Shown in pieces: positions 30,790 through 63,500 of a DNA stretch of 64,000 nucleotides. Source of the stretch: Cytophagales bacterium (lineage in GTDB: Bacteria > Bacteroidota > Bacteroidia > Cytophagales > UBA9547). The position numbers and the translations under genes were made by a program. Position 1 is the stretch's first letter. Each line of letters begins with the position of its first letter. The DNA is taken from NCBI GenBank assembly GCA_013297755.1, contig JAAFIH010000017.1:26264-90263 (forward strand). Reading direction: 5' to 3'. The notes beneath the pieces are model-generated. The model had not been told where the DNA came from and did no database searches. It worked only from the letters and a program-made list of their open reading frames with translations.

Positions 30790-30799
30790 TGGTAAATGA

Positions 30800-30865
30800 T
30801 TAATTGTTAATTGTTAATTGTTAATTGTTAATGGTTAATTGTTAATTGTTAATGGTTAATTGTTA
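30800..30865. repeat. heptanucleotide tandem array (TTAATTG)x9
   Basis: Read directly: nine consecutive TTAATTG/TTAATGG units starting 11 nt after the stop codon. Confidence 0.9.
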
Positions 30866-30871
30866 AAAAAA

Positions 30872-30897: not shown

Positions 30898-30943
30898 ATC
30901 AATAATATGCTAGATTCATAATTTATAACTCATAATTTATAAC

Positions 30944-46706: not shown

Positions 46707-47129
46707 TTAGATAAAACTGCAATTATAAAAAATTTTAAACGGACATTCTTTTGCAAGTTCGTCATAACCTTTGTCGTTGTGTACTAAAGTTATGTTAGAA
46801 TTTATGGCATAAGTAGCAATTAGGCAATCATTGGGTTTACGAATTGTAATTCCTTTTTTACGAAGATGAAAATACATTTGAGCAGCGAGAACAGACATTT
46901 CGTAAGGATTAGCTTCAATCCTTTTTATATCGTCAATTATACTTTTTAAATGAGTGAATTTTCTAGCATCTGATACCCCTTGTAATATTTCTTGAACAAT
47001 TGGTGGACAAATAAAATTATTGTAAGAAGAAAAAATCTTATCTTTTAATAGTTCCGTTCTTACTTCATTCACTCCTTTGATATAATTAATCCAGATACTT
47101 ATATCAAACATTACTTTCCCATTTGTCAT
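46707..47129 (-). CDS. vapC: type II toxin VapC (PIN domain)
   Basis: MFDISIWINYIKG (first acidic residue), IVQEILQG, and NDCLIATYAI...LVHNDKGY. The start is possibly the internal ATG at 47111, which overlaps the vapB stop. Confidence 0.75.
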   Translation of the reverse strand: MTNGKVMFDISIWINYIKGVNEVRTELLKDKIFSSYNNFICPPIVQEILQGVSDARKFTHLKSIIDDIKRIEANPYEMSVLAAQMYFHLRKKGITIRKPNDCLIATYAINSNITLVHNDKGYDELAKECPFKIFYNCSFI

Positions 47130-47316
47130 AAGTTCTCATTTCATCTAAATTGCCAACCCAAGAATTTTCACCACGCATTTTTTCAAACTCGATTAGTTTT
47201 AAAAGTCTTAAATGTGTGTCTAAGGCAATATCTACTGCTTCTTTTTTAGTTTTGAATTTGCCCATTTGCATTAACAATTCCATTTTTTGATCATCTATTT
47301 CAATATTTGTCCTCAT
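47104..47316 (-). CDS. vapB: type II antitoxin VapB (DUF2191-like)
   Basis: MRTNIEIDDQKMELLMQ...KKEAVDIAL N-terminus, 70 aa, overlapping the PIN gene. Confidence 0.7.
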   Translation of the reverse strand: MRTNIEIDDQKMELLMQMGKFKTKKEAVDIALDTHLRLLKLIEFEKMRGENSWVGNLDEMRTYDKWESNV

Positions 47317-47362: not shown

Positions 47363-47409
47363 AATTCATAATTCATAATTCATAATTCATAATTCATAAT
47401 TCATAATTT
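47363..47409. repeat. heptanucleotide tandem array (AATTCAT)x6-7
   Basis: Read directly. It occupies the gap between the SDR stop (47410) and the vapB start. Confidence 0.85.
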
Positions 47410-48189
47410 CTATAGTGCCCTATCCAAATGCGTATAGCCGCCATCTACATATAGAATTTGCCCAGTTGTGTGTGCCGAAACTTCTGAGGCAAGAAATAAA
47501 ACTGTGTTTGCGATTTCTTCTGCAGTTGTAAAGCGATTTTCAAGTGGAATTTTTGATGTTATTTTCTTTAATTTTTCTTCTGGATTGGCAAAAGTTTTTA
47601 TCCATCTATCGTAAAGAGGTGTATAAACCTCAGCAGGAATAACCGAGTTTACTCTAATTCCAAATGGCAAAAGTTCTACTGCCCATTCTCTTGTTAAAGC
47701 ATTTTGAGCTCCTTTGCTAGCAGCATAACCAGATGTGCCACCCTGCCCAGTTACCGCAGTTTTAGACCCAATATTAATGATATTTCCTTTGGTTTTCTTC
47801 AAATAAGGCAGTGCAAAATGAGCCAAATTATAGTAATGAAACAGGTTTTTGTGCATGGATTCGATAAACTTTTCTGGCGAACCATGTTCTAATCCAACGC
47901 CATCGTTTACACCAGCATTATTAATCAAAACATCGATTTGTCCATAAATAGAAATGGTTTTTTCAATCGCATTTTTACAATCCAAAACATCAGAAAGTTC
48001 TGTTTTAATAAATTGAAATTCAGCTTTGAGATTTTTTAGCTTTTGCTCAATTTCTATTCCAGCAATATCCGAGCGACCCAAAATCACTACTTTTGCACCT
48101 TCAGAAACAGCCCCAAGCGTTATTGCCTCGCCAATACCAGCTCCTCCGCCTGTAACGATGATAACTTTGTTTTTTAATTTTAAATCCAT
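47410..48189 (-). CDS. SDR family oxidoreductase; candidate L-fucose dehydrogenase by context
   Basis: TGGGAGIGEA Rossmann motif, NNAG, and the YxxxK context YAASKGA. Confidence 0.75.
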   Translation of the reverse strand: MDLKLKNKVIIVTGGGAGIGEAITLGAVSEGAKVVILGRSDIAGIEIEQKLKNLKAEFQFIKTELSDVLDCKNAIEKTISIYGQIDVLINNAGVNDGVGLEHGSPEKFIESMHKNLFHYYNLAHFALPYLKKTKGNIINIGSKTAVTGQGGTSGYAASKGAQNALTREWAVELLPFGIRVNSVIPAEVYTPLYDRWIKTFANPEEKLKKITSKIPLENRFTTAEEIANTVLFLASEVSAHTTGQILYVDGGYTHLDRAL

Positions 48190-48196
48190 TTTTTTA

Positions 48197-48284
48197 ATGT
48201 GTTATGTGTAATGTGTAATGCGTAATGTGTAATGTGTAATGTGTAATGCGTAATGGTAATGCGTAATGTTTAATAGGTAATGCT
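48197..48284. repeat. heptanucleotide tandem array (GTGTAAT/GCGTAAT), about 12 units
   Basis: Read directly. It lies immediately upstream of the SDR start; the sense strand reads ATTACAC repeats. Confidence 0.85.
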
Positions 48285-48320
48285 TTTGTTTTATTGAGAG
48301 CAAGCCAAGCCATTTTGGGG

Positions 48321-49892
48321 CTAGATATTATAAAATTTTATTGCATTTTTTGCCATGATTTTTTCTTGTTCGTTGATACTTAAATCAGAAATATAGTTTG
48401 ATACAATTCCTAAAACTTGTTGATAATCAGCGGCTAGTAAACACACAGGCCAATCGGAGCCATAAATCAATCTATCAGTTCCAAACGTGTTGAAAACGGT
48501 ATCTAATACTTGTCTAAAATCAGATTCTTTCCAACTTTGCCAATGGGCTTCGGTTACCATGCCTGAAACTTTGCAAAATACATTGGGCAAATGTTTAAAT
48601 GCCTGCATATCATTTTTCCATTCACTAAAATCTTGGTTACGAATATCAGGTTTAGCCAAATGGTCAATCACAAATTTTTGATTTGGAAATTCTTGAACCA
48701 GTTCCAATGCCTCTTCCAATTGATGTGGTTTTAGTAATAAATCGTAAGTATAATTTTGGTTTTTAAGCTTTGAAATAAAATATCTAAACTTATCATCAGA
48801 CATAAATCCGTTTGGCTTTGCTTGGATGATATGTCGGAAACCTTTTAATAGTTCGTAGTTGGGAGTTTGTAGTTGGGAGTTCGTAGTTGGGAGTTCGTGG
48901 TTGGGAGTTCGTAGTTGGGAGTTCGTAGTTGGGAGTTCGTGGTTGGGAGTTCGTAGTTGGGAGTTCGTAGTTGGGAGTTGGGAGTTCGTAGTTAGGAGTT
49001 CGGAGTTAGGAGTTGGGAGTTCGTAGTTGGGAGTTCGTAGTTGGGAGTTAGGAGTTAGGAGTTGGGAGTTCGTAGTTAGGAGTTGGGAGTTCGTGGTTCG
49101 TGGTTCGGAGTTATTTTTCTCCGAACTAAAACCTTTCTCCGAACTACGAACTACGAACTCCGAACTATTACCTTTCTCCGAACTACGAACTCTGAACTCC
49201 GAACTATTTCCTTTCTCCGAACTACGAACTCCGAACTCCGAACTATTTCCTTTCTCCGAACTAAAACCTAAATCTGCCCAGCCCACAACACCTTTTATAA
49301 AATCATGTTTTGAAGCCAAATCTAATAAAAACTCTGTTTCTTGCCATGTTTCGGCAGCTTGAACGGCAATAATTCCGTAGTTTGTAGTTGGGAGTTCGTA
49401 GATGGGAGTTCGTAGTTCGTAGTTGGGAGTTCGTAGTTCGTAGTTGGGAGTTCGTGGTTCGTAGTTGGGAGTTCGTGGTTGGGAGTTTTTTTTCTCCGAA
49501 CTCCGAACTCCGAACTCCGAACTATTTTTTTTCTCCGAACTACGAACTAAGTTCTCCAAACTATTACCTTTCTCCGAACTACGAACTACAAACTCCGAAC
49601 TAAAACCTTTCTCCGAACTCCGAACTCCGAACTCCGAACTATTATTTTTCTCCAAACTATTACCTTTCCCCGAACTACGAACTACGAACTCCGAACTATT
49701 ACCTTTCCCCGAACTACGAACTACGAACTCCGAACTATTACCTTTCCCCGAACTAAAATCATCAGGAAGAAATGATTTTTTAATCACTTCCATTCCATCA
49801 CCAATCCAATCAAATTCTGGATTATTTGCATCGTAATTCCAAAAATGCACATGAGAATCTATAAAGTTCACGGTTGGTTGTTGGTTGTTCAT
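48321..49892 (-). CDS. amidohydrolase-2 family protein (L-fucono-1,5-lactonase-like) carrying two in-frame repeat insertions
   Basis: Conserved blocks FIDSHVHFW, GIIAVQAAE, GVVGWADL, KGFRHI, FVIDHLAKP and LIYGSDWPV. They are interrupted by about 126 and about 139 codons of low-complexity sequence. Total is 523 aa against my recollection of roughly 280-290 aa for this family. Confidence 0.75.
   Translation of the reverse strand: MNNQQPTVNFIDSHVHFWNYDANNPEFDWIGDGMEVIKKSFLPDDFSSGKGNSSEFVVRSSGKGNSSEFVVRSSGKGNSLEKNNSSEFGVRSSEKGFSSEFVVRSSEKGNSLENLVRSSEKKNSSEFGVRSSEKKNSQPRTPNYEPRTPNYELRTPNYELRTPIYELPTTNYGIIAVQAAETWQETEFLLDLASKHDFIKGVVGWADLGFSSEKGNSSEFGVRSSEKGNSSEFRVRSSEKGNSSEFVVRSSEKGFSSEKNNSEPRTTNSQLLTTNSQLLTPNSQLRTPNYELPTPNSELLTTNSQLPTTNSQLRTPNHELPTTNSQLRTPNHELPTTNSQLQTPNYELLKGFRHIIQAKPNGFMSDDKFRYFISKLKNQNYTYDLLLKPHQLEEALELVQEFPNQKFVIDHLAKPDIRNQDFSEWKNDMQAFKHLPNVFCKVSGMVTEAHWQSWKESDFRQVLDTVFNTFGTDRLIYGSDWPVCLLAADYQQVLGIVSNYISDLSINEQEKIMAKNAIKFYNI
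48847..49262. repeat. inverted-arm heptamer element inside the lactonase CDS (insertion 2)
   Basis: Plus strand: about 263 nt of TTGGGAG/TTCGTAG units, then the apex TTCGGAG-ttattttt-CTCCGAA, then about 145 nt of CTCCGAA/CTACGAA units with CTATTTCCTTT spacers. Confidence 0.85.
49377..49755. repeat. inverted-arm heptamer element inside the lactonase CDS (insertion 1)
   Basis: About 110 nt of TTGGGAG/TTCGTAG units, then the apex GGGAG-T8-CTCC, then about 262 nt of the complementary CTCCGAA/CTACGAA units in 39-nt higher-order repeats. Confidence 0.85.
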
Positions 49893-49898
49893 AGAGAA

Positions 49899-50255
49899 TT
49901 AAGATTTTATTGATTTTTTTAGTCCACTTATCATTTTGATTATTTCTTCTAATTTTTGGTATTGATTATTAAAGTCTACCTCTAAAATTATATTTCTTTT
50001 TTTTCCAAGATGCAAACAACTAACACATTCTATTGCTGACCTCATGGCTATTGAAAGAAATCTAGCAAATTCAGGTTTTGTCTGACCAGTTGAACCTTCT
50101 GCAATATTTAATACAATAGAATCAGCAGCTCGTTGAAATTGGCTTGATAAAACATACTTTTCTTCGGAAGGGAATTTTTTTATCAAAATATTAACTTCTA
50201 AAGAATAATCTAAAGCCTTTTGCCAAACTTGTAAGTTTTCAAAATTAAATGCCAT
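49899..50255 (-). CDS. four-helix-bundle protein (23S rRNA intervening-sequence protein family, TIGR02436-like)
   Basis: FENLQVWQKALDY...FPSEEKYVLSSQFQRAADSIVLNIAEGS...EFARFLSIAMRSAIE, 118 aa. Confidence 0.8.
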   Translation of the reverse strand: MAFNFENLQVWQKALDYSLEVNILIKKFPSEEKYVLSSQFQRAADSIVLNIAEGSTGQTKPEFARFLSIAMRSAIECVSCLHLGKKRNIILEVDFNNQYQKLEEIIKMISGLKKSIKS

Positions 50256-50256
50256 G

Positions 50257-50437
50257 GTTTTTGGTTTTTAGTTTTTAGTTGGGAGTTCGTAGAATTTAGT
50301 TGGGAGTTCGTAGAATTTAGTTCGTAGTTCGTAGAATTTAGTTTGTAGTTCGTAGAATTTAGTTCGTAGTTCGTAGTTGGGAGTTGGTTGTTCATAGAAT
50401 TGAGTTTTTAGTTGGTGGATTTTAGTTTTGGAGTTTA
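50257..50437. repeat. heptamer array, G-rich orientation (left arm of a large intergenic inverted repeat)
   Basis: 21-nt higher-order unit AGTTGGGAGTTCGTAGAATTT x4 plus TTTTTAG/TTGGGAG units. It is the reverse complement of the array at 50663-50874. Confidence 0.85.
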
Positions 50438-50662
50438 TTTTGAAATTATTAGTCTATCGATTAAATTATTTTTTTTGGGATAAATAGTTACTAAGTGATG
50501 TTACGCTGATTTTTTTTTAAATCATTGTCAGTCTTATTTTTTCAAGCATTCATAGGTTATTAACAATATTAAAATTTCAATAAAATTATAGTTTTGCGTA
50601 ACATCAATTACTAAATATAACTTATTAACTGGATTCGACATAAAATTTAATAAATAATAAAC

Positions 50663-50874
50663 TAATTACAACAAACTACAAACAACGAACAATCGATTCC
50701 CAACTCCCAACCACTAACTCCCAACTATGAACTAAATTCTACGAACTACCAACTACGAACTACGAACTAAATTCTACGAACTCCTAACTACAAACAACGA
50801 ACTAAATTCTACGAACTCCCAACTCCTAACAACGAACTCCCAACTCCCAACTACGAACTCCCAACTACCAACTG
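50663..50874. repeat. heptamer array, C-rich orientation (right arm)
   Basis: It contains AACTAAATTCTACGAAC x3, the exact complement of the left-arm unit, plus CTCCCAA/CTACGAA units. It runs into the last codons of the FAH-family gene. Confidence 0.85.
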
Positions 50875-51807
50875 TCTTTGCTCTCCCAACCCATCTATTC
50901 CCAACTCTACTATATCACCTGCTTTTAGGTATTGTGGTGGATTGAATCCTAATCCTACTCCTGCTGGAGTTCCAGTAGAAATTACATCTCCAGGCAATAA
51001 AGTCATAAATTGACTGATGTAGCTTACCACAAATGGCACATTGAAAATAAAATCATTGGTATTGCTATCTTGCTTCATTTCTCCATTTACTTTGAGCCAA
51101 AGTCTAAGATTGTGCACATCTTTTACTTCATCTTTGGTGGCTAAAAATGGACCAAGAGGAGCAAAAGTATCGCAGCCCTTTCCTTTATCCCACTGTCCGC
51201 CACGCTCAAGCTGAAAAGCTCTTTCACTATAATCATTATGCACACAATAGCCGGCAACATAGTTTAATGCCTCATTTTCAGACACATAAGTGGCTTTTTT
51301 GCCAATTACAATAGCAAGTTCTACTTCCCAATCGGTTTTTTCAGAGGTTTTTGGAATTATAATATTTCCGTTGGGGTCGTTCAAGGCAGTGGTAGATTTA
51401 AAGAACAAAATAGGCTCTTTAGGAATAGGCGAATTGGTTTCGTGGGCATGAAGTCTATAATTCAATCCTACACAAACTATTTTAGATGGACGAGCTACGC
51501 AAGAAGCCAGTTTGGGAGTTGGGGCTTGGGAGTTCGTAGTTGGGAGTTCGTAGTTCGTAGTTGGGAGTTGGTAGTTCGTAGTTGGGAGTTGGGAGTTCGT
51601 AGTTGGGGCTTGGGAGTTCGTAGTTGGGAGTTCGTAGTTCGTAGTTGGGAGTTTGTCCAATTCTAAGGTTTTTAGTTTTTCAAGCCCACCATATGCAAAG
51701 AAATCTTCATTAAAATCTGAAAAGATGCTGCTTACATCATAGATTTTATCATTGGCTAATAAGCCTGGTTTTACTTGATTGTTTTGGTAAAATCGTACTA
51801 GTTTCAT
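50851..51807 (-). CDS. fumarylacetoacetate hydrolase (FAH) family protein; candidate 2,4-diketo-3-deoxy-L-fuconate hydrolase, with an in-frame heptamer insertion
   Basis: PSKIVCVGLNYRLHAHE, WEVELAIVIGK, QWDKGKGCDTFAPLGP and TLLPGDVISTGTPAGVG. A 46-aa LPTTNYE/LPTTNSQ tract lies between the N-terminal lobe and the catalytic domain. Confidence 0.8.
   Translation of the reverse strand: MKLVRFYQNNQVKPGLLANDKIYDVSSIFSDFNEDFFAYGGLEKLKTLELDKLPTTNYELPTTNSQAPTTNSQLPTTNYQLPTTNYELPTTNSQAPTPKLASCVARPSKIVCVGLNYRLHAHETNSPIPKEPILFFKSTTALNDPNGNIIIPKTSEKTDWEVELAIVIGKKATYVSENEALNYVAGYCVHNDYSERAFQLERGGQWDKGKGCDTFAPLGPFLATKDEVKDVHNLRLWLKVNGEMKQDSNTNDFIFNVPFVVSYISQFMTLLPGDVISTGTPAGVGLGFNPPQYLKAGDIVELGIDGLGEQRQLVVGSS
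51514..51651. repeat. heptamer array inside the FAH CDS (single orientation, 138 nt)
   Basis: TTGGGAG/TTCGTAG/TTGGGGC units on the plus strand. The coding strand reads the stop-free CTCCCAA/CTACGAA version as (LPTTN[YS][EQ])n. Confidence 0.85.
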
Positions 51808-51818
51808 AATTTTATATT

Positions 51819-51912
51819 AGCCCCCCAACCCCCGAAGGGGGAGTTTAAATAGATTTAAGCACTGGGGATTAAGTGCTTCCCCGAAGTATTCCCCCTTCGG
51901 GGGGTGGGGGCT
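51819..51912. repeat. GC-rich palindromic element (CCCCCGAAGGGGG family) filling an intergenic gap
   Basis: AGCCCCCCAACCCCCGAAGGGGGA ... TCCCCCTTCGGGGGGTGGGGGCT terminal inverted repeats, with inner hairpin AAGCACT-ggggatt-AAGTGCTT. It ends exactly at the SDR stop codon (51913). Confidence 0.8.
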
Positions 51913-52668
51913 TTACATCTTCAACCCCACAAACCCTCCATCAATAGCGTAATCTGATCCTGTGATAAAAGAAGCATCGTCTGAGCATAAATAATATGCC
52001 AATTTGGCTATTTCTTCGGGTGTACCCATTCTGCCTATGGGTTGCGATTTACTCAATTTTTCAAACATTTCGGCTTCTTTGCCAGGATAATTTTTGGCAA
52101 TAAATCCATCTACAAACGGTGTATGTACTCTGCCTGGCGAAATGCAATTGCAGCGAATGCCATGTTCGACATAATCACGTGCAACAGAAAGTGTGATGCC
52201 CACCACAGCTCCTTTGCTCATGCTGTATGCAAAGCGGTCGGGAATACCAATGCTCGAAGCCACAGATGCCATATTTAAAATCACTCCTGATTTTTGGGCT
52301 TTCATTTTTGGAATTACTGCCGAAAGACAATTATAAACTCCTTTTACATTTACATTATAAATTTTATCAAAATCGGTTTCAGAGCAGTTTTCTAGATTTC
52401 CAACATGAGCTATGCCTGCATTATTAACCAAAATATCAATATGTGATAATGTGTTAAGGTGCTCATGTGTTAAAGTATGATTTGAAATATCTAATTTGTG
52501 AAAATGTGCTTTTCCGCCTTGATTTTCTATGATTGATTTGGTTTCAGTTCCACCTTTATCATCCATATCTAAAATTACTACTTCTGCTCCTTTTTGAGCA
52601 AAAAGTATGGAAATTGCTTTTCCTATTCCTGAGCCTCCGCCTGTGATGATGGCTGTTTTGTTTTGCAT
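51913..52668 (-). CDS. SDR family oxidoreductase; candidate 2-keto-3-deoxy-L-fuconate dehydrogenase by context
   Basis: TGGGSGIGKA, NNAG and YSMSKGA motifs, 251 aa. Confidence 0.75.
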   Translation of the reverse strand: MQNKTAIITGGGSGIGKAISILFAQKGAEVVILDMDDKGGTETKSIIENQGGKAHFHKLDISNHTLTHEHLNTLSHIDILVNNAGIAHVGNLENCSETDFDKIYNVNVKGVYNCLSAVIPKMKAQKSGVILNMASVASSIGIPDRFAYSMSKGAVVGITLSVARDYVEHGIRCNCISPGRVHTPFVDGFIAKNYPGKEAEMFEKLSKSQPIGRMGTPEEIAKLAYYLCSDDASFITGSDYAIDGGFVGLKM

Positions 52669-52686
52669 AATTTATAAATATATTTC

Positions 52687-54129
52687 TTACTTAAAATACC
52701 CTTCCAATTTTATTGTAGTTGCATATTCATTTTCATATTTTGTTGGCAAGTCAAGTGCAATTCCTTCATAGGTTTGCGACCATTTAAGAGGAATATTTTT
52801 TTGACTCAAAACACTAACTTTACAAGTATTGTTAGCTTTTAAACCTTTGATTATCAGTTTTGAAACCGAAATTGGGTCTAGCAAAACAGCATACAAATCA
52901 TTGCCCTTACGTGTAAATCTTATGCGAGCTTGCGTGTTGCTCTCTCCTTCTGCTTGTGTGTGTGAGGATGTTCCAAAAATAGCTTCTCCGTTTATACTTA
53001 GCCATTTTCCAAGTTTTTGTAATCTTGAAGCCTGTAAATCAGGGATATTTCCTTCGGCATCTGGACCAACATTTAAGAGCAAATTTCCATTTTTGCTCAC
53101 TATGTCCACAAACATATCTATTAATTTATCAGCCGAAATGTGATGCACATCTGTTTCTATGGCATTGTATCCAAACGAGTTTCCTAAGCCTCTGCAAGTT
53201 TCCCATTTATAGTCGGTTTTGTCTTTTAAAACTTGATATTCAGGGGTTGTGAAGCCATATATTTTTTTATTTTTAGCATTCCAGCGGTCGTTTATAATGC
53301 CTTCGGGAACTTTATAATAATAATATGCCAACATACCTACAAAATCGCCTTTGTCTGGAAAATTTATATCGTTCCACAAAATATCTGGTTTGAATTTATC
53401 AATCAACTCATTGAAATGTGCAGTTGCATAATTTCCATACGCATAAGTTTGGGGTATAGACATAAATAAATTGGGCCAAATATCATTGATAGGAACTTTA
53501 TAAAAAGTCCAATCTAATCCACCAGAATAATACACTCCAAAGCGAATATTTTTTTTGCGAACGGCTGCTGATAATTCTCCCACAATATTTCTTTCGGCTG
53601 ATAAAGCATGCTTAGTAGGCGAATAATTTGGATATGGAACTGCAGAATTCCACAACAAAAATCCATCGTGATGTTTGGTGGTGATGACCACATATTTAGC
53701 TCCCACTTGCTCAAACAAACTTGCCCAAGTATCAGGATTCCATTTTTTAGACTTTTCATTAAAAAGTGGAATAAAATCATAGTAATTGAAATTAGCACCA
53801 TATTTTTCAATATGATACTTCTGAGTAGGAGATTGATTAAACTGCATGGTGTTCAAATACCATTCTGCATAAGGATTTTTTTTATAAAATTCTTCCCAGT
53901 TATTAACATTTCCAGGGTCGAGCTCTGGAGGTGCATAAGCAGGAACAGAATACAATCCCCAATGTATAAATATGCCCAATTTAGCATCATTAAACCATGT
54001 AGGTTGTTGTCTTTTTGCTAAAGAATCTTCATTTGGCAAATATATTTTTGAAGATTGAACTTGTGCATAAACATCCAATTTAATTAAAAAATATAAAAAA
54101 AATAAACTTACTAATTTAACTTTTGTCAT
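52687..54129 (-). CDS. alpha-L-fucosidase (GH29), secreted
   Basis: WFNDAKLGIFIHWGLYSVPA, YVVITTKHHDGFLLW and GNLLLNVGPDAEG motifs, with a signal peptide. Confidence 0.85.
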   Translation of the reverse strand: MTKVKLVSLFFLYFLIKLDVYAQVQSSKIYLPNEDSLAKRQQPTWFNDAKLGIFIHWGLYSVPAYAPPELDPGNVNNWEEFYKKNPYAEWYLNTMQFNQSPTQKYHIEKYGANFNYYDFIPLFNEKSKKWNPDTWASLFEQVGAKYVVITTKHHDGFLLWNSAVPYPNYSPTKHALSAERNIVGELSAAVRKKNIRFGVYYSGGLDWTFYKVPINDIWPNLFMSIPQTYAYGNYATAHFNELIDKFKPDILWNDINFPDKGDFVGMLAYYYYKVPEGIINDRWNAKNKKIYGFTTPEYQVLKDKTDYKWETCRGLGNSFGYNAIETDVHHISADKLIDMFVDIVSKNGNLLLNVGPDAEGNIPDLQASRLQKLGKWLSINGEAIFGTSSHTQAEGESNTQARIRFTRKGNDLYAVLLDPISVSKLIIKGLKANNTCKVSVLSQKNIPLKWSQTYEGIALDLPTKYENEYATTIKLEGYFK

Positions 54130-54133
54130 TTTA

Positions 54134-54463
54134 CTATAATTGAAATATTTTATCCATTAACATCCATTTTTCTCCATTTTTTGCTAATGGTAAAGGTTGT
54201 TGAAATTTCCACATCAACTCTTCCCATTCTTTTTGGCGAGGCAACTCTGCTAGTTTTTTCATTTGAACCTCAAAATCAAAATCATCGGGAGTTTCCATAA
54301 TCATAAACATTCGATTTTCAATCCTGTAAATCTGCATATCCAAAATACCCACTTCCCGTATGCCATCCAAAATTTCAGACCATACGTTTTGATGATATTC
54401 TTCGTATTTTTTAATCAAAGTTGCATCATTCTTTAAATCTAAAGCAAGGCAAAATCGTTTCAT
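54134..54463 (-). CDS. L-rhamnose mutarotase family protein (probable L-fucose mutarotase here)
   Basis: MKRFCLALDLKND...YEEYHQNVWSEI...GILDMQIY, 109 aa, RhaM fold signature. Confidence 0.8.
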   Translation of the reverse strand: MKRFCLALDLKNDATLIKKYEEYHQNVWSEILDGIREVGILDMQIYRIENRMFMIMETPDDFDFEVQMKKLAELPRQKEWEELMWKFQQPLPLAKNGEKWMLMDKIFQL

Positions 54464-54467
54464 AATA

Positions 54468-54630
54468 GTTTTTTAGTTTTTAGTTGGGAGTTCGTAGTTG
54501 GGAGTTGGGAGTTGGGAGTTCGTAGTTGGGAGTTCGTGGTTGGGAGTTCGTAGTTGGGAGTTCGTAGTTGGGAGTTAGTAGTTAGTAGTTGGGAGTTCGT
54601 GGTTTTTAGTTCGTGGTTTTTAGTTTGAAG
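54468..54630. repeat. heptamer array TTGGGAG/TTCGTAG (G-rich on plus strand)
   Basis: Read directly. It fills the gap between the ABM-domain gene and the mutarotase gene; the sense (minus) strand reads CTCCCAACTACGAA up to the mutarotase ATG. Confidence 0.9.
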
Positions 54631-54651
54631 TTCCATTTCATAAACACTATG

Positions 54652-54966
54652 TTAGCTATTGTTTTTATTTTCCGATTCAAATATCGTTTCGTAATGTTCA
54701 ACTGTCGGAAACGGGTCGTAATAATGATGCAAAATCTTTTTCCATTCCAAATATTCTGCTGATAGTCTAAATCCAATTGTATGGTCTTCCAAATTTTCCC
54801 AGTCCACAAGCAAAATGTATTTATTTTTCTGTTCCAAACATTTTCGCAATGAGTGTCTCAAATACCCTTTAATAGAACTAATATATTGTCCTGCTATCAA
54901 AAAATCTTTTTCAAAGTTATCTTCTTGTCCACTTTTTACATTCAATATAGCAACTTCTAAAATCAT
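54652..54966 (-). CDS. antibiotic-biosynthesis-monooxygenase (ABM) domain protein
   Basis: 104-aa ferredoxin-like fold pattern (ILEVAILNVKSG...FE..F ... LLVDWENLEDHT.GFR). Confidence 0.65.
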   Translation of the reverse strand: MILEVAILNVKSGQEDNFEKDFLIAGQYISSIKGYLRHSLRKCLEQKNKYILLVDWENLEDHTIGFRLSAEYLEWKKILHHYYDPFPTVEHYETIFESENKNNS

Positions 54967-55155
54967 ATTTCTTCAACTTTTGATTGTCTTTTTGTTCTAT
55001 TGAAGTAAATCAACCCTACTTTTTTTGAAGTTTTATTTACATTTTGTAAAATAAAAGCTAACATTGTTTTTAGTTTTTAGTTAGTTTGTAGTTAGAGACA
55101 TTAAGTTTATTTTTAAAGTTATAATTATATGTATACTTATTTTAATTTTAAATCA

Positions 55156-55307
55156 ACAACCTACTCCCAACACCCAACTACGAACACCCAACTACAAACT
55201 ACGAACTACGAACTCCCAACTACAAACTACGAACTCCAAACCACGAACTCCCAACTACAAACCACGAACACCCAACTACAAACTACGAACTACGAACTAC
55301 TAACTCC
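55156..55307. repeat. heptamer array CTCCCAA/CTACGAA/CACCCAA (C-rich on plus strand)
   Basis: Read directly. It abuts the stop codon of the second fucosidase (55308). A short opposite-orientation array (55066-55096) lies about 60 nt away. Confidence 0.9.
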
Positions 55308-56672
55308 CTACTTCAATTCTATCTCAAAAACCGTATTTATTTTATCGGGCATTGGAAAAGTTTGATAACAAGGTCTATCAACATTTATGTAAACATTTTT
55401 GCCTGTATTATCTCCCCACCAAGTGGTTTCGTACCTGATTTCTGAGCCATCTTGTAAAAGATTCACTCGTTTTACTTTATCTGAATAATCTTTTAAAACA
55501 ATTCCTCCAATGGCAGGATACATTCTGTGAGCGAATAGAGATTTCCCATTAGAAGTAAATATTCCCCAATCATAACGAGGCATAGTACTAGCACCACAGC
55601 CAAATATGCTTTTTCCATTTTTTTGCATCCAATTTCCAACTTCTGCTAAAATATCAGTTGATTGTTTCGGGATTCTACCCAAAGCATCTGGACCAACATT
55701 GAGTAATAAATTACCATTTTTGCTCACACAGTTTACAAGTGTATGAATCACCAAAGGAGCTGATTTCCAATTGTTATCATATCTATTATAGCCCCAAGAG
55801 TTGTTTAAGGTTAAACAAGATTCCCAAGGGAGTGGTCTTCCTAGTTTGTCAGTGATGGCTTTTTCTGGAATAGTTTGTTCTGGTGTGTCAAAATCCCCAA
55901 ATGAATTTTCTTCCATGCCTGTGGTGCCGTCTCCACCCAATCTATTATTTAAAATAATGCTTGGTTGGAGTGTACGCACCATTTCTACTAATTCTTTAGC
56001 TTTCCATTTTTCGCCTTTCATTTCATCATAGCTAAAATCAAACCACATGATGTCTATTTTGCCATAGTTGGTACAAAGTTCTTTTACCTGACCGTGCATA
56101 AATTTGATGTAATTGTCCCAATTGATTTTTTCATCTTTATACTTTTCATTTCCACGCATTGGATGATGGGTATCTTTAAATTTGGGGTAATCAGGATGAT
56201 GCCAATCAATTACTGAAAAGTATAAGCCTACTTTTAAACCCTCTGCACGTAAGGCTTCCACGTATTCTTTGATAATATCACGTTTAAAAGGTGTATTGGT
56301 AATTTTATAATCTGTTTGTTTGGTATCCCAAAGAGCAAAACCTTCGTGGTGTTTGGCTGTGAGTACTACATATTTCATGCCTGCTTGTTTGGCAGTGCGA
56401 GCCCATTCTTTGGCATCAAATAAGTAAGGATTAAAGTTTTTAAAATACGCTTCGTCATAGACTTCGTTAGTTATTTTTTCAACACTTTTGACCCATTCGC
56501 CTCTTGAAGGTATGGAATATAAACCAAAATGGACAAACATACCAAAACGTGCATCACGATGCCATTCTGTGCGTTTGATTTTTGATTCATAACTATTGTC
56601 GTTGGCAGCTGGATTTTGTGCAAAACAAAATATTTGAAAAATCAATAATAATGCTGTATATACCTTTTTCAT
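55308..56672 (-). CDS. alpha-L-fucosidase (GH29), secreted
   Basis: WHRDARFGMFVHFGLYSIPS, YVVLTAKHHEGFALW and GNLLLNVGPDALG motifs, with a signal peptide. Confidence 0.85.
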   Translation of the reverse strand: MKKVYTALLLIFQIFCFAQNPAANDNSYESKIKRTEWHRDARFGMFVHFGLYSIPSRGEWVKSVEKITNEVYDEAYFKNFNPYLFDAKEWARTAKQAGMKYVVLTAKHHEGFALWDTKQTDYKITNTPFKRDIIKEYVEALRAEGLKVGLYFSVIDWHHPDYPKFKDTHHPMRGNEKYKDEKINWDNYIKFMHGQVKELCTNYGKIDIMWFDFSYDEMKGEKWKAKELVEMVRTLQPSIILNNRLGGDGTTGMEENSFGDFDTPEQTIPEKAITDKLGRPLPWESCLTLNNSWGYNRYDNNWKSAPLVIHTLVNCVSKNGNLLLNVGPDALGRIPKQSTDILAEVGNWMQKNGKSIFGCGASTMPRYDWGIFTSNGKSLFAHRMYPAIGGIVLKDYSDKVKRVNLLQDGSEIRYETTWWGDNTGKNVYINVDRPCYQTFPMPDKINTVFEIELK

Positions 56673-57940: not shown

Positions 57941-58170
57941 AGAAGTTCCACTTTTTTGAAAAGTGGAACTTCTACATTTACAAAGATACCATCGCTCCAA
58001 ACAAAGGTATCTTTATCATAAAATTTATGCGTAAGCAAAAGCCCCCTTCGGGGTTCTGTGCATCGAACAGAAGTACTTTCAGGGGGCTTTCTATCAAAAG
58101 CCCCTTTCGGGATTCTGTCCATCGAACAGAAGTACTTTCATGGGGCTTTCCCTGAAGTACCACTTTTTAA
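57941..58170. repeat. mosaic of nested hairpin modules (composite repeat, copy 1)
   Basis: Modules in order: AGAAGTTCCAC-ttttttgaaaa-GTGGAACTTCT; AAGATACC...GGTATCTT; two copies of AAAGCCCCCT..TTCTGT-gcatcga-ACAGAA..AGGGGGCTTT; a degenerate GAAGTACCAC hairpin. The same module order recurs at 63262-63500. Confidence 0.8.
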
Positions 58171-58697: not shown

Positions 58698-61600
58698 ATG
58701 AAAAATTCAATATTCAGCCCCCAAACCCCCGAAGGGGGCTTTCTGAGACTACAAACTTCAAACATTGTACTCCAATTCAAAAATCTTGCGCCAGCCTCAA
58801 ATACAAAAAAAGTCCTTTTTAAAGCCCCCTTCGGGGGTTTGGGGGCTGTTCTTTTCACATTCCTCCTCCTTACCCACCTCACCTTTGCTCAACGCACCTT
58901 TGCCCCACAAGTTACCTACGCCACAGGTACTAATCCATACAGCGTAGCGATAGGCGACCTTACTGGCGATGGCAGAGCAGATTTGGCAGTGGCGAATAGT
59001 AATATCAACACCATAAGTGTATATACCAACACAGGCAGCGGCAGCTTTGCCCCACAGGTAACCTACAACACAGGTTCTAATCCATACAGCGTATTTATAG
59101 GCGACCTTACAGGCGATGGCAAAGCCGATTTGGCAGTAGCGAATTATATTAGCAATACCGTAAGTGTATATACCAACACAGGCAGCGGCAGCTTTGCCCC
59201 ACAAGTAACCTACGCCACAGGTTCTCGTCCTTGTAGCGTAGCGATAGTTGACCTTACAGGCGATGGCAAAGCCGATTTGGCAGTAGCGAATCGTAGTAGC
59301 AATACCGTAAGTGTATATACCAACACAGGCAGCGGCACCTTTGCCCCCCAAGTTACCTACGCCACAGGTACTAGTCCATACAGCGTAGCCATAGGCGACC
59401 TTACAGGCGATGGCAGACCCGATTTGGTAGTAGCGAATAGTAATAGCAATACCGTAAGTGTATATACCAACACAGGCAGCGGCAGCTTTGCAGCCCAAGT
59501 AACCTACGCCACAGGGTCTGGTCCATTCAGCGTAGCGATAGGCGACCTTACAGGCGATGGCAAAGCCGATTTGGCAGTAGCGAATAATGGTAGCAATACC
59601 GTAAGTGTATATACCAACACTGGCAGCGGCAGCTTTGCAGCCCAAGTAACCTACGCCACAGGTCTTGGTCCAATCAGCGTAGCTATAGGCGACCTTACAG
59701 GCGATGGCAGAGCCGATTTAGCAGTAGCGAATCAGAGTAGCAATACCGTAAGTGTACTCACCAACACAGGCAGCGGCACCTTTGCCCCCCAAGTTACCTA
59801 CGCCACAGGTACTACTCCATGGAGCGTAGCCATAGGCGACCTTACAGGCGATGGCAAAGCAGATTTGGCAGTAGCGAATTATAATAGCAATACCGTAAGT
59901 GTACTCATCGCACAAGAGGTGCAGTTTATCAATGGGTTTTTAGTTTCAAATAAGGTATATGGCAGTACTTTTGCTTTTAATGCAACAGCTACAAGTGGCT
60001 TGCCGGTGAGCTACAGCAGTTCAAATCCTAGTATTTTAAGTCTTGTGGGCAATGCTGCTACAGCTACAGGTGTAGGAGTAGTTACAGTTACAGCTTTTCA
60101 AAATGGCAATGCTACTTTTGCAGGAGTTACACTTACGGGTGTGCTTACCATTACCAAAGCCAACCTTACTGTTCAAGGCAATAATAATACTAGGGTATAT
60201 GGAACTGCTAACCCTGCTTTTACAAGTTCGGTTACAGGTTTGGTATTGGGCAGCACAGTAAATGTAACCTACAGCACCACAGCCACACCTAGTAGCAATG
60301 TGGGCAATTATCCTATAAACATAAGTGTTACAGGCATAGCCTTGGCAAATTATAACCTCACTACTTTGGCAGGGGTTTTAACCATAACAGCAAAACCTGC
60401 CACCGTTTCGGGCAATAATTTTAGTAGAGAATATAGTGCTTCTAACCCCATATTTACAGGCAGTGTTTTAGGTTTGGTAAATAATGATGCAATTACATAT
60501 AGTGGTTCTACATCCGCAACAAGCCTTTCGGGAATTGGCGTTTATGCAATAATTGCAACCGCTGTTGGTACAAACATTCTCAATTATCAATTCTCCATTC
60601 TCAATTCAAACCTCTCCATTACCGCAAAATCAGCCACCGTTTCGGGCAATAATTTTAATAGAGTTTATGGTTCAACCAATCCTATATTTACAGGTACCGT
60701 TTTAGGTTTGGTAAATGGCGATGTACTTAATTATAGTGGTTCTACTACAGCCACAAGTCTTTCTGGAGTTGGCGTTTATGCAATTCTTGCAACTTTTGTG
60801 GGAAATAATGTGTCAAATAATTATAAACTCTCCATTCTCAATTCTCAATTAACTATTACTGCTTTGGCTTTTGTGAGTACAGCACCTAGCCCTATTGTTT
60901 TTAATAGTACAGTTTATGATGGTCAGCCAAAAGTGCCTTCTGTGGTTGGTTTGCCTAGCACTTCGGGAGTAAACTATACCTACAATGGCAGTAGCACAGC
61001 TCCCACCAATGCAGGAAGTTATACAGTTGTGGGTATAATCACAGACCCAAATTACACAGGTACAGTTACAAGTGTAATCATAATATCTCCATCAGATATT
61101 AGCAATCAACTTTCGGTAGCTGGGCTTAGCAATAGTATGTATAATGGTTCGCCCAAAACTACAAGCATTACAGGTTTGCCTTTAGGAGTTGCCAGTAGCG
61201 TTACCTACAATGGTAGCCCAACTGCACCTACAAACGCAGGTACATATACAGTTATAGGAATTGTAAATGATAATAATTATATAGGTACAGTTACAAGTGT
61301 TATCGTAATTTCTCCATCAGACATTAGCAACCAACTTTCGGTAGCTGGGCTTAGCAATAGTGTATATAATGGTTCGCCCAAAACTACAAGCATTACAGGT
61401 TTGCCTTCAGGAGTTGCCAGTAGCGTTACCTACAATGGTAGCCCAACTGCACCTACAAACGCAGGTACATATACAGTTATAGGAATTGTAAATGATAATA
61501 ATTATATAGGTACAGTTACAAGTGTTATCCTAATTTCTCCATCAGACATTAGCAACCAACTTTCGGTAGCTGGGCTTAGCAATAGTATGTATAATGGTTC

Positions 61601-62747
61601 GCCAAAAGCTACAAGTATTACAGGTTTGCCTTCAGGAGTTGCCAGTAGCGTTACCTACAATGGTAGCCCAACTGCACCTACAAACGCAGGTACTTACACA
61701 GTTATAGGAATTGTAAATGATAATAATTATATAGGTACAGTTACAAGTGTTATCCTAATTTCTCCATCAGACATTAGCAACCAACTTTCGGTAGCTGGGC
61801 TTAGCAATAGTGTATATAATGGTTCGCCAAAAGCTACAAGCATTACAGGTTTGCCTTCAGGAGTTGCCAGTAGCGTTACCTACAATGGTAGCCCAACTGC
61901 ACCTACAAACGCAGGTACATATACAGTTATAGGAATTGTAAATGATAATAATTATGTAGGCACAACCACAAGCACAATGGTAATTTTACCAGTTTCGGCA
62001 ACCATAGTTGGCAACAATGTAAACAGAGTATATGGCTTAGCTAATCCCATATTTACAGGTACAATATTAGGTTTGGTAAATAGCGATGTTATAAATTATG
62101 AAGGTTCTACATCAGCCACAAGCCTTTCGGGAATTGGGGTTTATGCAATCATAGCCACAGCCACAGGAACAAACGTGGGTAATTATCAATTCTCCATTTT
62201 CAATGCTCAATTAACAGTAACACCAGCAAATGCAACAGCAAGTGTATCTGGCATAGTGTCGGATGGAAATATTGTTAACGCCACTGTGCCAACAAGTATT
62301 ACCATTTCGGGTTCAGGTTTCGAGCCAGGAGCAAGTGTTACTGTCAATGGAGTGGTTTTGTCAAACTTAATAGTAATTAACGGCTCAACAATTATAGCTA
62401 CTTTGCCAGCTGGCTCAGCCACAAGTAGCAATGTGAGTGCAATAGTTCAAAACCCAAACCAAAATCCAAGTGCCTCAACTGCTATAGTTGTAGTAAACGC
62501 CAATCCAACTTCTACTAGCCTACCAGTCTACCAATCTACCAACCTTACAGTTTTCCCCAATCCAAGTAAAGGTAGTTTTACAATTTCGGCATCTATGCCA
62601 CTAGGCAAAATAATGATTTACACCCTCGATGGAAAATTGGTGCAAACCAAAACTACCAATGAAAACAAACTATTTGTTTCGGGTATTTCAACAGGAACAT
62701 ATATTGTATATGTGGATAAATCGAGTGTAAAAGTAGTGGTTGAATAG
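58698..62747 (+). CDS. FG-GAP/VCBS beta-propeller + MBG + Ig-like repeat protein with a T9SS type A sorting domain
   Basis: Seven 49-aa FAPQVTYATG..P.SVAIGDLTGDGKADLAVAN..SNTVSVYTNTGSGS repeats. MBG-like (R)VYG..NPIFTG..LGLVNGD modules. Four near-identical 75-aa Ig-like modules. C-terminus LTVFPNPSKGSFTI...GTYIVYVDKSSVKVVVE. Confidence 0.8.
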   Translation: MKNSIFSPQTPEGGFLRLQTSNIVLQFKNLAPASNTKKVLFKAPFGGLGAVLFTFLLLTHLTFAQRTFAPQVTYATGTNPYSVAIGDLTGDGRADLAVANSNINTISVYTNTGSGSFAPQVTYNTGSNPYSVFIGDLTGDGKADLAVANYISNTVSVYTNTGSGSFAPQVTYATGSRPCSVAIVDLTGDGKADLAVANRSSNTVSVYTNTGSGTFAPQVTYATGTSPYSVAIGDLTGDGRPDLVVANSNSNTVSVYTNTGSGSFAAQVTYATGSGPFSVAIGDLTGDGKADLAVANNGSNTVSVYTNTGSGSFAAQVTYATGLGPISVAIGDLTGDGRADLAVANQSSNTVSVLTNTGSGTFAPQVTYATGTTPWSVAIGDLTGDGKADLAVANYNSNTVSVLIAQEVQFINGFLVSNKVYGSTFAFNATATSGLPVSYSSSNPSILSLVGNAATATGVGVVTVTAFQNGNATFAGVTLTGVLTITKANLTVQGNNNTRVYGTANPAFTSSVTGLVLGSTVNVTYSTTATPSSNVGNYPINISVTGIALANYNLTTLAGVLTITAKPATVSGNNFSREYSASNPIFTGSVLGLVNNDAITYSGSTSATSLSGIGVYAIIATAVGTNILNYQFSILNSNLSITAKSATVSGNNFNRVYGSTNPIFTGTVLGLVNGDVLNYSGSTTATSLSGVGVYAILATFVGNNVSNNYKLSILNSQLTITALAFVSTAPSPIVFNSTVYDGQPKVPSVVGLPSTSGVNYTYNGSSTAPTNAGSYTVVGIITDPNYTGTVTSVIIISPSDISNQLSVAGLSNSMYNGSPKTTSITGLPLGVASSVTYNGSPTAPTNAGTYTVIGIVNDNNYIGTVTSVIVISPSDISNQLSVAGLSNSVYNGSPKTTSITGLPSGVASSVTYNGSPTAPTNAGTYTVIGIVNDNNYIGTVTSVILISPSDISNQLSVAGLSNSMYNGSPKATSITGLPSGVASSVTYNGSPTAPTNAGTYTVIGIVNDNNYIGTVTSVILISPSDISNQLSVAGLSNSVYNGSPKATSITGLPSGVASSVTYNGSPTAPTNAGTYTVIGIVNDNNYVGTTTSTMVILPVSATIVGNNVNRVYGLANPIFTGTILGLVNSDVINYEGSTSATSLSGIGVYAIIATATGTNVGNYQFSIFNAQLTVTPANATASVSGIVSDGNIVNATVPTSITISGSGFEPGASVTVNGVVLSNLIVINGSTIIATLPAGSATSSNVSAIVQNPNQNPSASTAIVVVNANPTSTSLPVYQSTNLTVFPNPSKGSFTISASMPLGKIMIYTLDGKLVQTKTTNENKLFVSGISTGTYIVYVDKSSVKVVVE
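58716..58847. repeat. GC-rich palindromic element (CCCCCGAAGGGGG family) inserted in-frame in the signal-peptide coding region
   Basis: AGCCCCCAAACCCCCGAAGGGGGCTTT ... AAAGCCCCCTTCGGGGGTTTGGGGGCT, 27-bp perfect terminal inverted repeats. It is exactly 132 nt, which is 44 codons. Confidence 0.8.
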
Positions 62748-62760
62748 GTAACAAAGGATG

Positions 62761-63248
62761 CGAACGCAGACAGGGTTTTGAACCCTGTCTGCGTTTGATT
62801 TTTTAAAGATTCTGTCGCTTGGAGCGATGATTTCTTTTTTTAAACTACAAACCTATAAGGTTTTAAAAACCTTATAGGTTTGCGAACGCAGACAGGGTTT
62901 TGAACCCTGTCTGCGTTTGATTTTTTAAAGATTCTATCGCTTGGAGCGATGATTTCTTTTTTTTAACTACAAACCTATAAGGTTTTAAAAACCTTATAGG
63001 TTTGCGAACGCAGACAGGGTTTTGAACCCTGTCTGCGTTTGATTTTTTAAAGATTCTATCGCTTGGAGCGATGATTTCTTTTTTTTAACTACAAACCTAT
63101 AAGGTTTTAAAAACCTTATAGGTTTGCGAACGCAGACAGGGTTTTGAACCCTGTCTGCGTTTGATTTTTTAAAGATTCTATCGCTTGGAGCGATGATTTC
63201 TTTTTTTTAACTACAAACCTATAAGGTTTTAAAAACCTTATAGGTTTA
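62761..63248. repeat. 4 x 122-bp near-identical tandem repeat, each unit built of three hairpins
   Basis: Units start at 62761, 62883, 63005 and 63127. Hairpins are AACGCAGACAGGGT-loop-ACCCTGTCTGCGTT (+TGATTTTTT), ATCGCT-tgg-AGCGAT, and the perfect palindrome AAACCTATAAGGTTTT/AAAACCTTATAGGTTT. Confidence 0.9.
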
Positions 63249-63261
63249 TTTACCGATTTTT

Positions 63262-63500
63262 TAAAAAGTGAAACTTCTACGTTTACAAATATACCATCGC
63301 TCCAAACAAAGGTATCTTTATCATAAAATTCATGAGTTAGCAAAAGCCCCCTTCGGGGGTTTGGGGGCTTACTATCAAAAGCCCTCTTCGGGGTTCTGTG
63401 CATCGAACAGAAGTACTTTCAGGGGTTCTGTGCATCGAACAGAAGTACTTTCAGGGGGCTTTCCCTGAAGTTCCACTTTTTTGAAAAGTGGAACTTCTAC
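63262..63500. repeat. mosaic of nested hairpin modules (composite repeat, copy 2)
   Basis: Same module order as 57941-58170, in direct orientation, ending with GAAGTTCCAC-ttttttgaaaa-GTGGAACTTC. Confidence 0.8.

Follow-up and report, generated by a model that had tools for sequence, protein, structure and literature searches.

The window analysed here, a stretch of 64,000 nt of contig JAAFIH010000017.1 from a Cytophagales bacterium (assembly GCA_013297755.1), carries on its minus strand a fucose operon whose genes are separated, and in places interrupted, by long tandem arrays of heptanucleotides, and which includes a gene of the four-helix-bundle family PF05635. The explanation towards which we lean is that these arrays are the overgrown, partly orphaned arms of palindromic, intervening-sequence-like cassettes, grown by slippage and shaped by translational selection. 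This reading draws on a cross-phylum association: PF05635 genes are commonly bracketed by short inverted arms, and the motifs of the window arrays fit the core of those arms.

Two sets of PF05635 loci were picked by protein similarity only: 79 from Bacteroidota (set 1) and 78 from many phyla (set 2: Cyanobacteria, Chloroflexota, Acidobacteriota, Armatimonadota, Ignavibacteria, Balneolales, Bacteroidota, Nitrospirota and deltaproteobacteria). With arms defined as an inverted repeat scoring at least 30 between the 200-nt flanks, the gene was bracketed in 55/79 loci of set 1 and 49/78 of set 2 (63-70%), versus 0.4% and 1.3% of random sites and 2.5% of other genes in the same loci (n = 401). Pairing flanks across different loci gave 21% (set 1) and 15% (set 2), and the higher score within loci than between them shows that each arm resembles its partner in the cassette more closely than either resembles a universal sequence. 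Arms are typically ~31 nt long (four to five units), with a period of 7 in 28 and of 8 in 27 loci of set 1 and a period of 7 in all 49 of set 2 (77 and 27 in total). Furthermore, arms with more G than C outnumbered the converse on the upstream side by 46:5 in set 1 and 47:1 in set 2, and the purine-rich arm was upstream in 93/99. An expectation-maximisation alignment of 75 period-7 arms yielded a core of A (0.79), G or A (0.59 and 0.37), T (0.86) and T (0.54), with an information content of 4.25 bits versus 2.81 +/- 0.05 after column permutation. All window motifs fit this A-R-T-T core, as does AGTTATC, the reverse complement of the previously described heptamer TAACTGA. In set 1, 70/79 cassettes lie between co-oriented genes; PF05635 genes have also been found lodged between cas genes (Zhang and co-workers), which fits a habit of inserting within operons.

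Every PF05635 locus that we read directly, in Bacteroidota and in Nostoc (where the arms are AGTTAGG/AGTTATG), has the same layout of stop codon, arm, open reading frame (ORF) and arm. Two relatives of the window genome (L286 and L288) carry the PF05635 gene at the same place as the window, bracketed by canonical arms in the order stop, AGTTCGT/AGTTGGT/AGTTCAT arm, PF05635 ORF, CTACGAA/ACTACCA arm, ATG; in their predicted fold a terminal stem closes the cassette. The closest relative (L001) is missing the gene, and its FAH and lactonase genes lie 3 nt apart.

Other PF05635 loci vary in arm length and position. In a Bacteroidota fucose operon (L162) the gene sits between rhaM and the lactonase gene with an arm of ~480 nt (6395-6880, AGTAGAC/AGTAGTC) and a second of ~300 nt (7300-7600, TATTGAC/CATTGAC); the window genome is therefore not alone in having very long arms. 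A 216-nt GGTCTTC/GGTCTCT array lies downstream of a Chitinophagaceae PF05635 gene (L280, ~4370-4590), where no upstream partner was detected. Mucilaginibacter, Chitinophagales, Flammeovirgaceae, Ohtaekwangia and Cyclobacteriaceae carry a cassette at one common site (L205, L207, L210, L211, L213, L235 and L260, ~position 4000), between a gene whose product ends in YQPITKRxIDE and an agmatine-deiminase-like gene; depending on the genome, its arms are built of AGTCCAT-type units with period 7 or of GGAAGTCC-type units with period 8.

Arrays in the window were detected with Tandem Repeats Finder (TRF) plus direct reading of the sequence, and the two agreed. In DNA of 32% G+C, the period-7 arrays span 46-506 nt, far above chance, and form a dense series at 47.3-55.3 kb with two further arrays at 30.8-31.4 kb. 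All have periods of 7 or its multiples, which bears out the 7-nt period stated in the sequence-only reading of this DNA, and their TRF scores (92-633) place them among heptanucleotide long simple-sequence repeats (5-11-nt unit). The features are as follows, with motifs given on the sense strand.

55154-55305, minus strand: G-rich arm (G-arm), AGTTCGT/AGTTGGG/AGTTTGT, TRF periods 7/21/28, score up to 174; begins 3 nt past the stop of fucosidase ORF 55308-56672; 18 start codons and 4-5 stops per frame.
55066-55095, minus strand: short C-type array, CTAACTACAAACTAACTAAAAACTAAAAAC, ~100 nt 5' of the ABM start at 54966 (TRF); no G and no start codons.
54652-54966, minus strand: ABM-family ORF, 104 aa (Pfam PF03992, E 5e-9), enclosed by arms 55305-55154 and 54625-54466.
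54466-54625, minus strand: C-rich arm (C-arm), AACTCCC/AACTACG, TRF period 14, x7.4, 92% matches; reaches the rhaM start at 54463; 7 G in 160 nt, 0 start codons.
51512-51653, minus strand: in-frame array in the FAH-family hydrolase ORF, TRF period 21, x6.5.
50698-50873 (repeat extends to 50913), minus strand: G-arm overlapping the 3' end of the FAH ORF (TRF); 13 start codons and 4-6 stops per frame.
50443-50697, minus strand: A+T-rich non-coding spacer of 255 nt separating two arms, the loop of a predicted stem.
50257-50442, minus strand: C-arm, CTACGAA/CTCCCAA/CTAAATT, TRF period 21, x7.3, 2 nt ahead of the four-helix-bundle ATG; 8 G in 186 nt, 1 start codon.
49899-50255, minus strand: PF05635 four-helix-bundle gene, 118 aa, between the FAH and fuconolactonase genes (Pfam E 3.9e-34, full-length).
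49873-49889, minus strand: short C-type array, AACCAAC x2.4, at the 5' end of the fuconolactonase ORF (TRF).
49376-49755, minus strand: palindromic insert 1 in fuconolactonase; G-arm 49755-49489 (superperiods of 39 nt and 96 nt), A-run, C-arm 49487-49376.
48850-49263, minus strand: palindromic insert 2 in fuconolactonase; G-arm 49263-49119 (39-nt superperiod), C-arm 49098-48850 (a 14-mer x17.8, TRF score 344).
48195-48282, minus strand: C-type array, ACACATT (TAATGTG) x12.7, TRF score 120, 6 nt ahead of the start of short-chain dehydrogenase ORF 47410-48189; 3 G in 88 nt, 0 start codons.
47363-47408, minus strand: AATTCAT x6.6 (sense ATGAATT), TRF 100% matches, lying between the dehydrogenase stop (2 nt away) and the start at 47316 (47 nt away); 6 start codons, 2 stops per frame.
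30787-30866, plus strand: TTAATTG x9.6, straight after the stop of a plus-strand gene and followed by a terminator-like hairpin.
30916-31421, plus strand: AACTACC x68.7, TRF score 633, 481 nt without G, 94 nt before the plus-strand start at 31515.

The sequence-only reading had arrays of unrelated motifs filling almost every gap of the operon. Arrays occupy 6/9 gaps, including all those >30 nt except 51808-51912, and three large blocks turn out to be intragenic and read in frame rather than intergenic. Nor are the motifs unrelated: AGTTCGT, AGTTGGG, AGTTGGT, AGTTTTT, AATGTGT, AATTGTT and AATTCAT have a common A-R-T-T/G core, and a common generating process behind the arrays is supported. Superperiods between genes are 14, 21, 28, 35 and 42 nt (TRF). 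Within the 255-nt spacer (50443-50697) a decayed gene is ruled out by stops in all sense frames; the spacer contains an 11-bp inverted repeat (50507-50517 and 50597-50607, TGATGTTACGC and GCGTAACATCA) that might belong to a promoter region or represent a small structured RNA. A CRISPR array is ruled out because the 7-nt units are contiguous, whereas CRISPR loci have repeats of 23-50 nt with spacers, and an Rfam scan of 46-64 kb found no known RNA family and no rRNA. The exceptional gap, 51808-51912, is filled by a different, G+C-rich hairpin repeat.

The strand polarity of the arrays is consistent. Before the starts at 48189, ~49871/49892, 50255, 54463, 54966 and 31515 (plus strand) the sense strand is C-rich, with 0-8 G in 30-481 nt and 0-1 ATG/GTG/TTG codons in the start-proximal C-type arms, which end 2-6 nt ahead of the starts at 48189, 50255 and 54463. 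After the stops at 55308, 50851, 47410 and 30789 (plus strand) the sense strand carries the G version, and the two long G-arms there hold 13-18 start codons and 4-6 stops per frame. The polarity read earlier from the sequence thus stood at four starts (48189, 50255, 54463 and 54966) and at the stops at 50851 and 55308, with 47410 and 30789 as further cases, and failed at a fifth start, 47316, where ATGAATT is not the G-poor strand of its array. Because the AACTACC array near 31 kb lies on the plus strand before a plus-strand gene, polarity tracks transcription and not the chromosome strand. Paired arms are also predicted to form the mRNA stems that had been proposed. The region 54460-55310 has a minimum free energy (MFE) of -248.8 kcal/mol versus -170.7 +/- 7.3 kcal/mol for shuffles (z = -10.7), with a stem of ~140 bp that spans the ABM ORF and joins the arm past the fucosidase stop to the one ahead of rhaM. 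Upstream of the four-helix-bundle gene, a predicted stem of ~170 nt joins 50873-50698 to 50442-50257 around the 255-nt spacer, and inserts 1 and 2 fold into hairpins with predicted MFEs of -150.5 kcal/mol (z = -8.1) and -147.4 kcal/mol (z = -11.1).

Arrays within genes are read through. The FAH-family hydrolase (ORF 50851-51807, minus strand) has 318 aa versus ~283 aa in homologues, and its ~36 extra residues (LPTTNYELPTTNSQ..., LPTTNYELPTTNSQAPTTNSQ...) map onto the array at 51512-51653, which has zero stops in any sense frame; its last six codons (..LVVGSS) and TAG stop (50851-50853) come from the array at 50698-50873. The fuconolactonase (ORF 48321-49892, minus strand), whose homologues begin where GTG 49871 stands, has 523 aa versus 272-295 aa in its family, with inserts of ~127 and ~139 aa encoded by 49376-49755 and 48850-49263. 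Both inserts run, in the sense direction, from a G-rich arm of 39-nt superunits, each comprising four heptameric units (TTCGGAG or TTCGTAG) and AAAGGTAATAG, through an A-run to a C-rich CTCCCAA/CTACGAA arm. Insert 1 has 0 stops in the used frame versus 4 and 17 in the others, its C-arm being open in all three, and insert 2 has 0 versus 4 and 12. Superperiods within ORFs (21, 39 and 96 nt; TRF) are all divisible by three, the pattern expected if only frame-preserving expansions survive. The AlphaFold model of the lactonase keeps the barrel strands, while residues 32-173 and 210-339 have pLDDT <50 and no secondary structure. Between the window and L001, the FAH gene has a dN/dS of 0.09 and the lactonase gene one of 0.11. 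Taken together, these results make it most likely that the inserts are translated as disordered loops. The inserts suggest how repeats can add >100 residues to an enzyme, and the 39-nt superunit would be a record of the selection that permitted it.

Relatives place these insertions in time. Distant lactonase homologues have no inserts and keep the native segment at site 2, where insert 2 takes the place of ~17 native residues, while the nearest relatives (P0126-P0134) have shorter repeat-coded peptides at the same two sites, for example SSEFVVRSEKNNSS...NYEPRTTSYELPTTNY and EEFIVRS...NYEPSTINYKLL. At the DNA level, L288 has a short hairpin of G-arm, loop and C-arm at site 1, and in L001 the heptamers at site 1 are degenerate, with TTCTACA x4 at site 2. 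Repeats at both sites in close relatives suggest that elements entered the ancestor of the clade and then expanded, contracted and switched motif, the window genome having the most expanded form among the relatives compared. The FAH protein of L001 ends ...INYEL, which looks like a C-arm remnant, and a period-8 array (AACACACG) lies ~5 nt past the lactonase stop of L001, at the contig end (1768-1799). A search of 5.8 billion proteins for the repeat-coded peptide gave one match, as composition filters remove such sequences.

Restriction to one locus, which would have counted heavily against the earlier proposal, is not what we found: arrays occur also at 30.8-31.4 kb, in the relatives L001, L286 and L288, and, as the degenerate pattern AACTNCN x5, at 120 or more loci among species-representative genomes. 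The loci listed are mainly from Nostocales, with others in Bacteroidota, Planctomycetota, Ignavibacteria, Armatimonadota, Acidobacteriota and further groups. Array lengths differ at the same sites between related genomes, and motifs differ between relatives at orthologous sites. The exact 28-mer of the main motif had no match in 185,579 species-representative genomes, among which the closest FAH relative is 62% identical, so that the window genome and its genus are not represented there; one metagenome scan gave two uninformative matches only. A specific cargo between arm pairs is ruled out, since in cyanobacteria inverted array pairs enclose a varied set of ordinary genes.

The canonical element, as observed in relatives and in many phyla, is situated inside an operon and consists of the stop of gene A, purine-rich A-R-T-T-N-N-N heptamers, the PF05635 ORF, complementary AACT-type heptamers and the start of gene B; we propose that the window arrays are arms of such elements. 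An ancestor of the window genome may have gained such elements at several points of the fucose operon, two fuconolactonase loops among them, after which arms would have lengthened to 150-480 nt by slipped-strand replication, some now without the four-helix-bundle gene. The AGTT strand, with stops in every frame and many starts, would be tolerated only past a stop codon, and inside an ORF would survive only as the 39-nt superunit that holds TAG out of frame. In contrast, the AACT strand is near G-free, unstructured alone and without ATG/GTG/TTG, and its purest stretches are open, which would explain why it sits before starts and inside ORFs. We infer slippage as the growth mechanism, and likewise any benefit of the arrays as leader sequence. 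In Bacteroidetes, translation starts independently of any Shine-Dalgarno pairing, and mRNA structure tunes initiation (PMC6847099); since Bacteroidia ribosomes ignore Shine-Dalgarno sequences a G-free leader should be at least harmless. Paired arms would form long duplexes in the polycistronic transcript. The 23S rRNA intervening sequence offers an analogy by which RNase III probably cuts these duplexes, and the cassette would then be released from the cistrons on either side. The earlier suggestion of a leader or processing role for the arrays is plausible as a hypothesis.

Several observations weigh against this proposal. Both long arms in the window lie upstream of the PF05635 gene instead of enclosing it: in contrast to L286 and L288, the long stem is upstream of the ORF and only the AACCAAC x2.4 array is downstream. 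The fetched PF05635 loci are partly orthologous, so counts such as 104/157 loci with arms are not independent and p-values overstate independence. A bias of array orientation across genomes, which the earlier reading had made a check on itself, is present in the predicted direction and is moderate, not absolute: in a crude count of arrays versus ORFs in the listed AACTNCN x5 loci, G versions outnumbered C versions 92:61 downstream of stops and C outnumbered G 56:36 upstream of starts (odds ratio 2.35, Fisher p = 0.0016), with 19 C and 7 G versions within ORFs. A cassette beside every array is ruled out, as 3/120 array loci among the matches listed had a PF05635 gene within 8 kb versus 2/80 control loci (profile of ~150 sequences); arrays can evidently exist independently. 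The dN/dS ratios of window versus L001 average both lineages and do not prove activity of the 523-aa lactonase. Finally, descent can be read both ways, from cassette arms to orphan arrays or from arrays into which cassettes were later inserted. This one-sided association, in which most arrays lack a cassette, fits arms that outlive or outgrow it, cassettes that insert into existing hairpin arrays, or a protein that acts in trans on all arrays.

A broader conjecture, which we advance only tentatively, is that PF05635 genes and A-R-T-T arrays form one widespread selfish system, operon-colonising and processed by RNase III, in which a protein pentamer recognises one heptamer per subunit. If so, the STRR repeats of cyanobacteria, the TAACTGA repeats of Beggiatoaceae, 23S rRNA intervening sequences and the window arrays would be autonomous or orphaned forms of one system, and the pentamer would target tandem heptamers in single-stranded DNA or in RNA. 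In cyanobacteria the cataloguing of heptamer arrays goes back 35 years, and Bacteroidota and sulfur bacteria were added more recently, yet neither an origin nor a function has emerged; PF05635, a very common family, has no assigned function outside diversity-generating retroelements. The link between them across phyla merges two puzzles into one testable question, of repeat binding and excision by RNase III.

Alternatively, the arrays may be neutral long simple-sequence repeats that arose by slippage from proto-repeats, with no element identity or function, purifying selection alone giving their polarity and open frames. Heptanucleotides are the commonest class of long simple-sequence repeats in prokaryotes and are ascribed to slippage (Mrazek 2007, as cited in PMC4679880); the native FAH linker, LPTxNYE, is already three heptamers; most arrays are not beside a PF05635 gene; and motifs at orthologous sites vary between relatives. 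We nevertheless regard this explanation as unlikely, since it leaves unexplained the complementary pairing of arms, the bracketing of 63-70% of PF05635 genes (against 2.5% of neighbours) with fixed polarity, and an A-R-T-T core common to many phyla.

The arrays might instead be putative cis binding sites, for the four-helix-bundle pentamer or an S1-, Csp- or CsrA-like factor, that control translation or mRNA stability downstream. The PF05635 protein has structural relatives with five chains each (PDB 2GSC, E 4e-11, and 2RLD), a Xanthomonas protein is described as a homopentamer, and a ~31-nt arm has four to five units; arms also extend to start codons, the core is conserved across phyla, and the same role was proposed for TAACTGA by MacGregor (PMC4679880). 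Such control is decidedly improbable, given that arrays of 150-480 nt far exceed a plausible site, that those within ORFs and past stops are ill-suited to initiation control, and that the Coxiella protein appears not to be made (PMC4990558).

Arm pairs could also be non-autonomous mobile elements (MITE-, REPIN- or Rickettsia-palindromic-like), moved by an enzyme encoded elsewhere. Inserts 1 and 2 are alike (39-nt G-arm units, A-run and C-arm), the same motif family occupies at least 8 sites within 8 kb, and some relatives have the cassette, which one other lacks. Rickettsia palindromic elements are in-frame palindromic repeats in protein-coding genes, carried as extra peptide segments, and the in-frame palindromic insertions seen here recall them. 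However, they form a defined family of ~100-150 bp and are not tandem heptamers; the likeness to inserts 1 and 2 is one of architecture only, with no sequence relationship. No transposase was seen in the operon, no defined termini or target-site duplication were identified, and both intragenic sites are occupied in all close relatives, which points to old vertical insertions growing in place and makes mobility of this kind very unlikely.

An assembly or sequencing artefact can be dismissed: short-read contigs do break at arrays, but they are 100% identical to the window up to that point, reading frames stay open across ~800 nt of array, and relatives from other samples have arrays at the same sites. 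The contigs in question come from Logan short-read assemblies of the same strain (L202 and L203, from SRR9948920 and SRR9948927), match window positions 54511-51624 and 54510-51937 and end inside arrays, both terminating within the C-arm at 54466-54625. Independent same-strain assemblies identical up to the arrays show that these are not a product of this assembly, and contigs that stop inside them suggest that the repeats are frequent enough in the genome to break assemblies. In practice, such arrays both fragment short-read assemblies and inflate ORF predictions.

The sequence-only reading named the STRR repeats of heterocystous cyanobacteria as the closest precedent. STRR, like the window arrays, are tandem heptamers dispersed through a genome, but they differ in host phylum and motifs. 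With CCCCAGT as what we take to be STRR1, two copies with up to 2 mismatches were not found in the window; the closest protein relatives are from Bacteroidota, and STRR membership is ruled out. Two other systems are closer. Arrays of TAACTGA and of other heptamers were described from Beggiatoaceae, Cyanobacteria and five Bacteroidetes by MacGregor (2015), who proposed a translational regulator for the TAACTGA repeats and found no origin (PMC4679880). As in the window, those are tandem 7-nt units in spacers, with mixed heptamer types within one spacer, forward orientation just before starts and reverse past stops, length steps of 7 nt, occasional reverse copies inside ORFs and an A-R-T-T core (in AGTTATC). 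The window arrays differ in being far longer, in their complementary arm pairs and in the large in-frame inserts in enzymes; moreover, MacGregor reported no link to PF05635. Two copies of TAACTGA with up to 1 mismatch had 0 matches in the window, which rules out membership of that system on motif, even though the forward orientation before starts is the same.

The second close precedent is the PF05635 23S rRNA intervening sequence. That of Coxiella contains a PF05635 ORF and a 28-bp terminal stem cut by RNase III, with two or three tandem GACAGAT, depending on strain, just upstream of the ORF (PMC4990558). Intervening sequences of this kind (Leptospira, Coxiella) resemble the cassettes in their PF05635/S23p ORF, in complementary brackets that form a stem, in variable numbers of heptamers upstream of the ORF and in lying within a longer transcript. 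The window differs in that its host is an mRNA operon, the PF05635 gene lying between protein-coding genes and not in helix 25 or 45 of 23S rRNA; in arms of up to hundreds of nt instead of a 28-bp stem; in a stem beside the ORF and not around it; and in that RNase III cleavage has been shown only for the intervening sequence. Heptamer arrays in Bacteroidota are thus already known, while in our full-text literature searches we did not find the cassette link or frame-preserving arrays in genes described, nor any account of PF05635 genes as generally flanked by inverted arms of heptamers or octamers.

The ORFs between 56672 and 47104 all run on the minus strand; a LacI-family regulator is encoded divergently from them. 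By Pfam, they encode in transcript order a GH29 fucosidase, the ABM-family ORF, a RhaM-type mutarotase, a second GH29 fucosidase, a short-chain dehydrogenase, the FAH-family hydrolase, the PF05635 '23S rRNA intervening sequence protein', an Amidohydro_2 protein and a second short-chain dehydrogenase. Homologue names (2,4-diketo-3-deoxy-L-fuconate hydrolase for the FAH gene, L-fuconolactonase for the Amidohydro_2 gene) fit the non-phosphorylative L-fucose pathway, so the label 'fucose operon' is fair. The ABM gene had no homologue in 80 FAH-centred loci fetched from other genomes, many with fucose-pathway genes; judged by its sequence context, it is probably cassette cargo inserted between inverted arms. 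The operon is followed immediately by two small ORFs on the minus strand (46707-47316; 70 aa and 140 aa), which overlap and resemble a toxin-antitoxin pair in arrangement.

Other repeats in the window belong to different families. G+C-rich hairpins of CCCCCTTCGGG/CCCGAAGGGGG, unrelated to the heptamers, have 8 matches versus 0.11 expected, with copies at 51810-51912, 58036-58150, 58728-58835 and 63347-63457. A 1349-aa ORF (58698-62747) contains two kinds of tandem repeat, one of 147 nt (x6.9, 88% matches) and one of 225 nt (x4.1, 96% matches), each length being divisible by three, and at its end and just downstream (62759-63247) lies a 122-nt unit repeated x4.0 at 99% identity, with hairpins of its own (TGCGAACGCAGACAGGGTTTTGAACCCTGTCTGCGTT).

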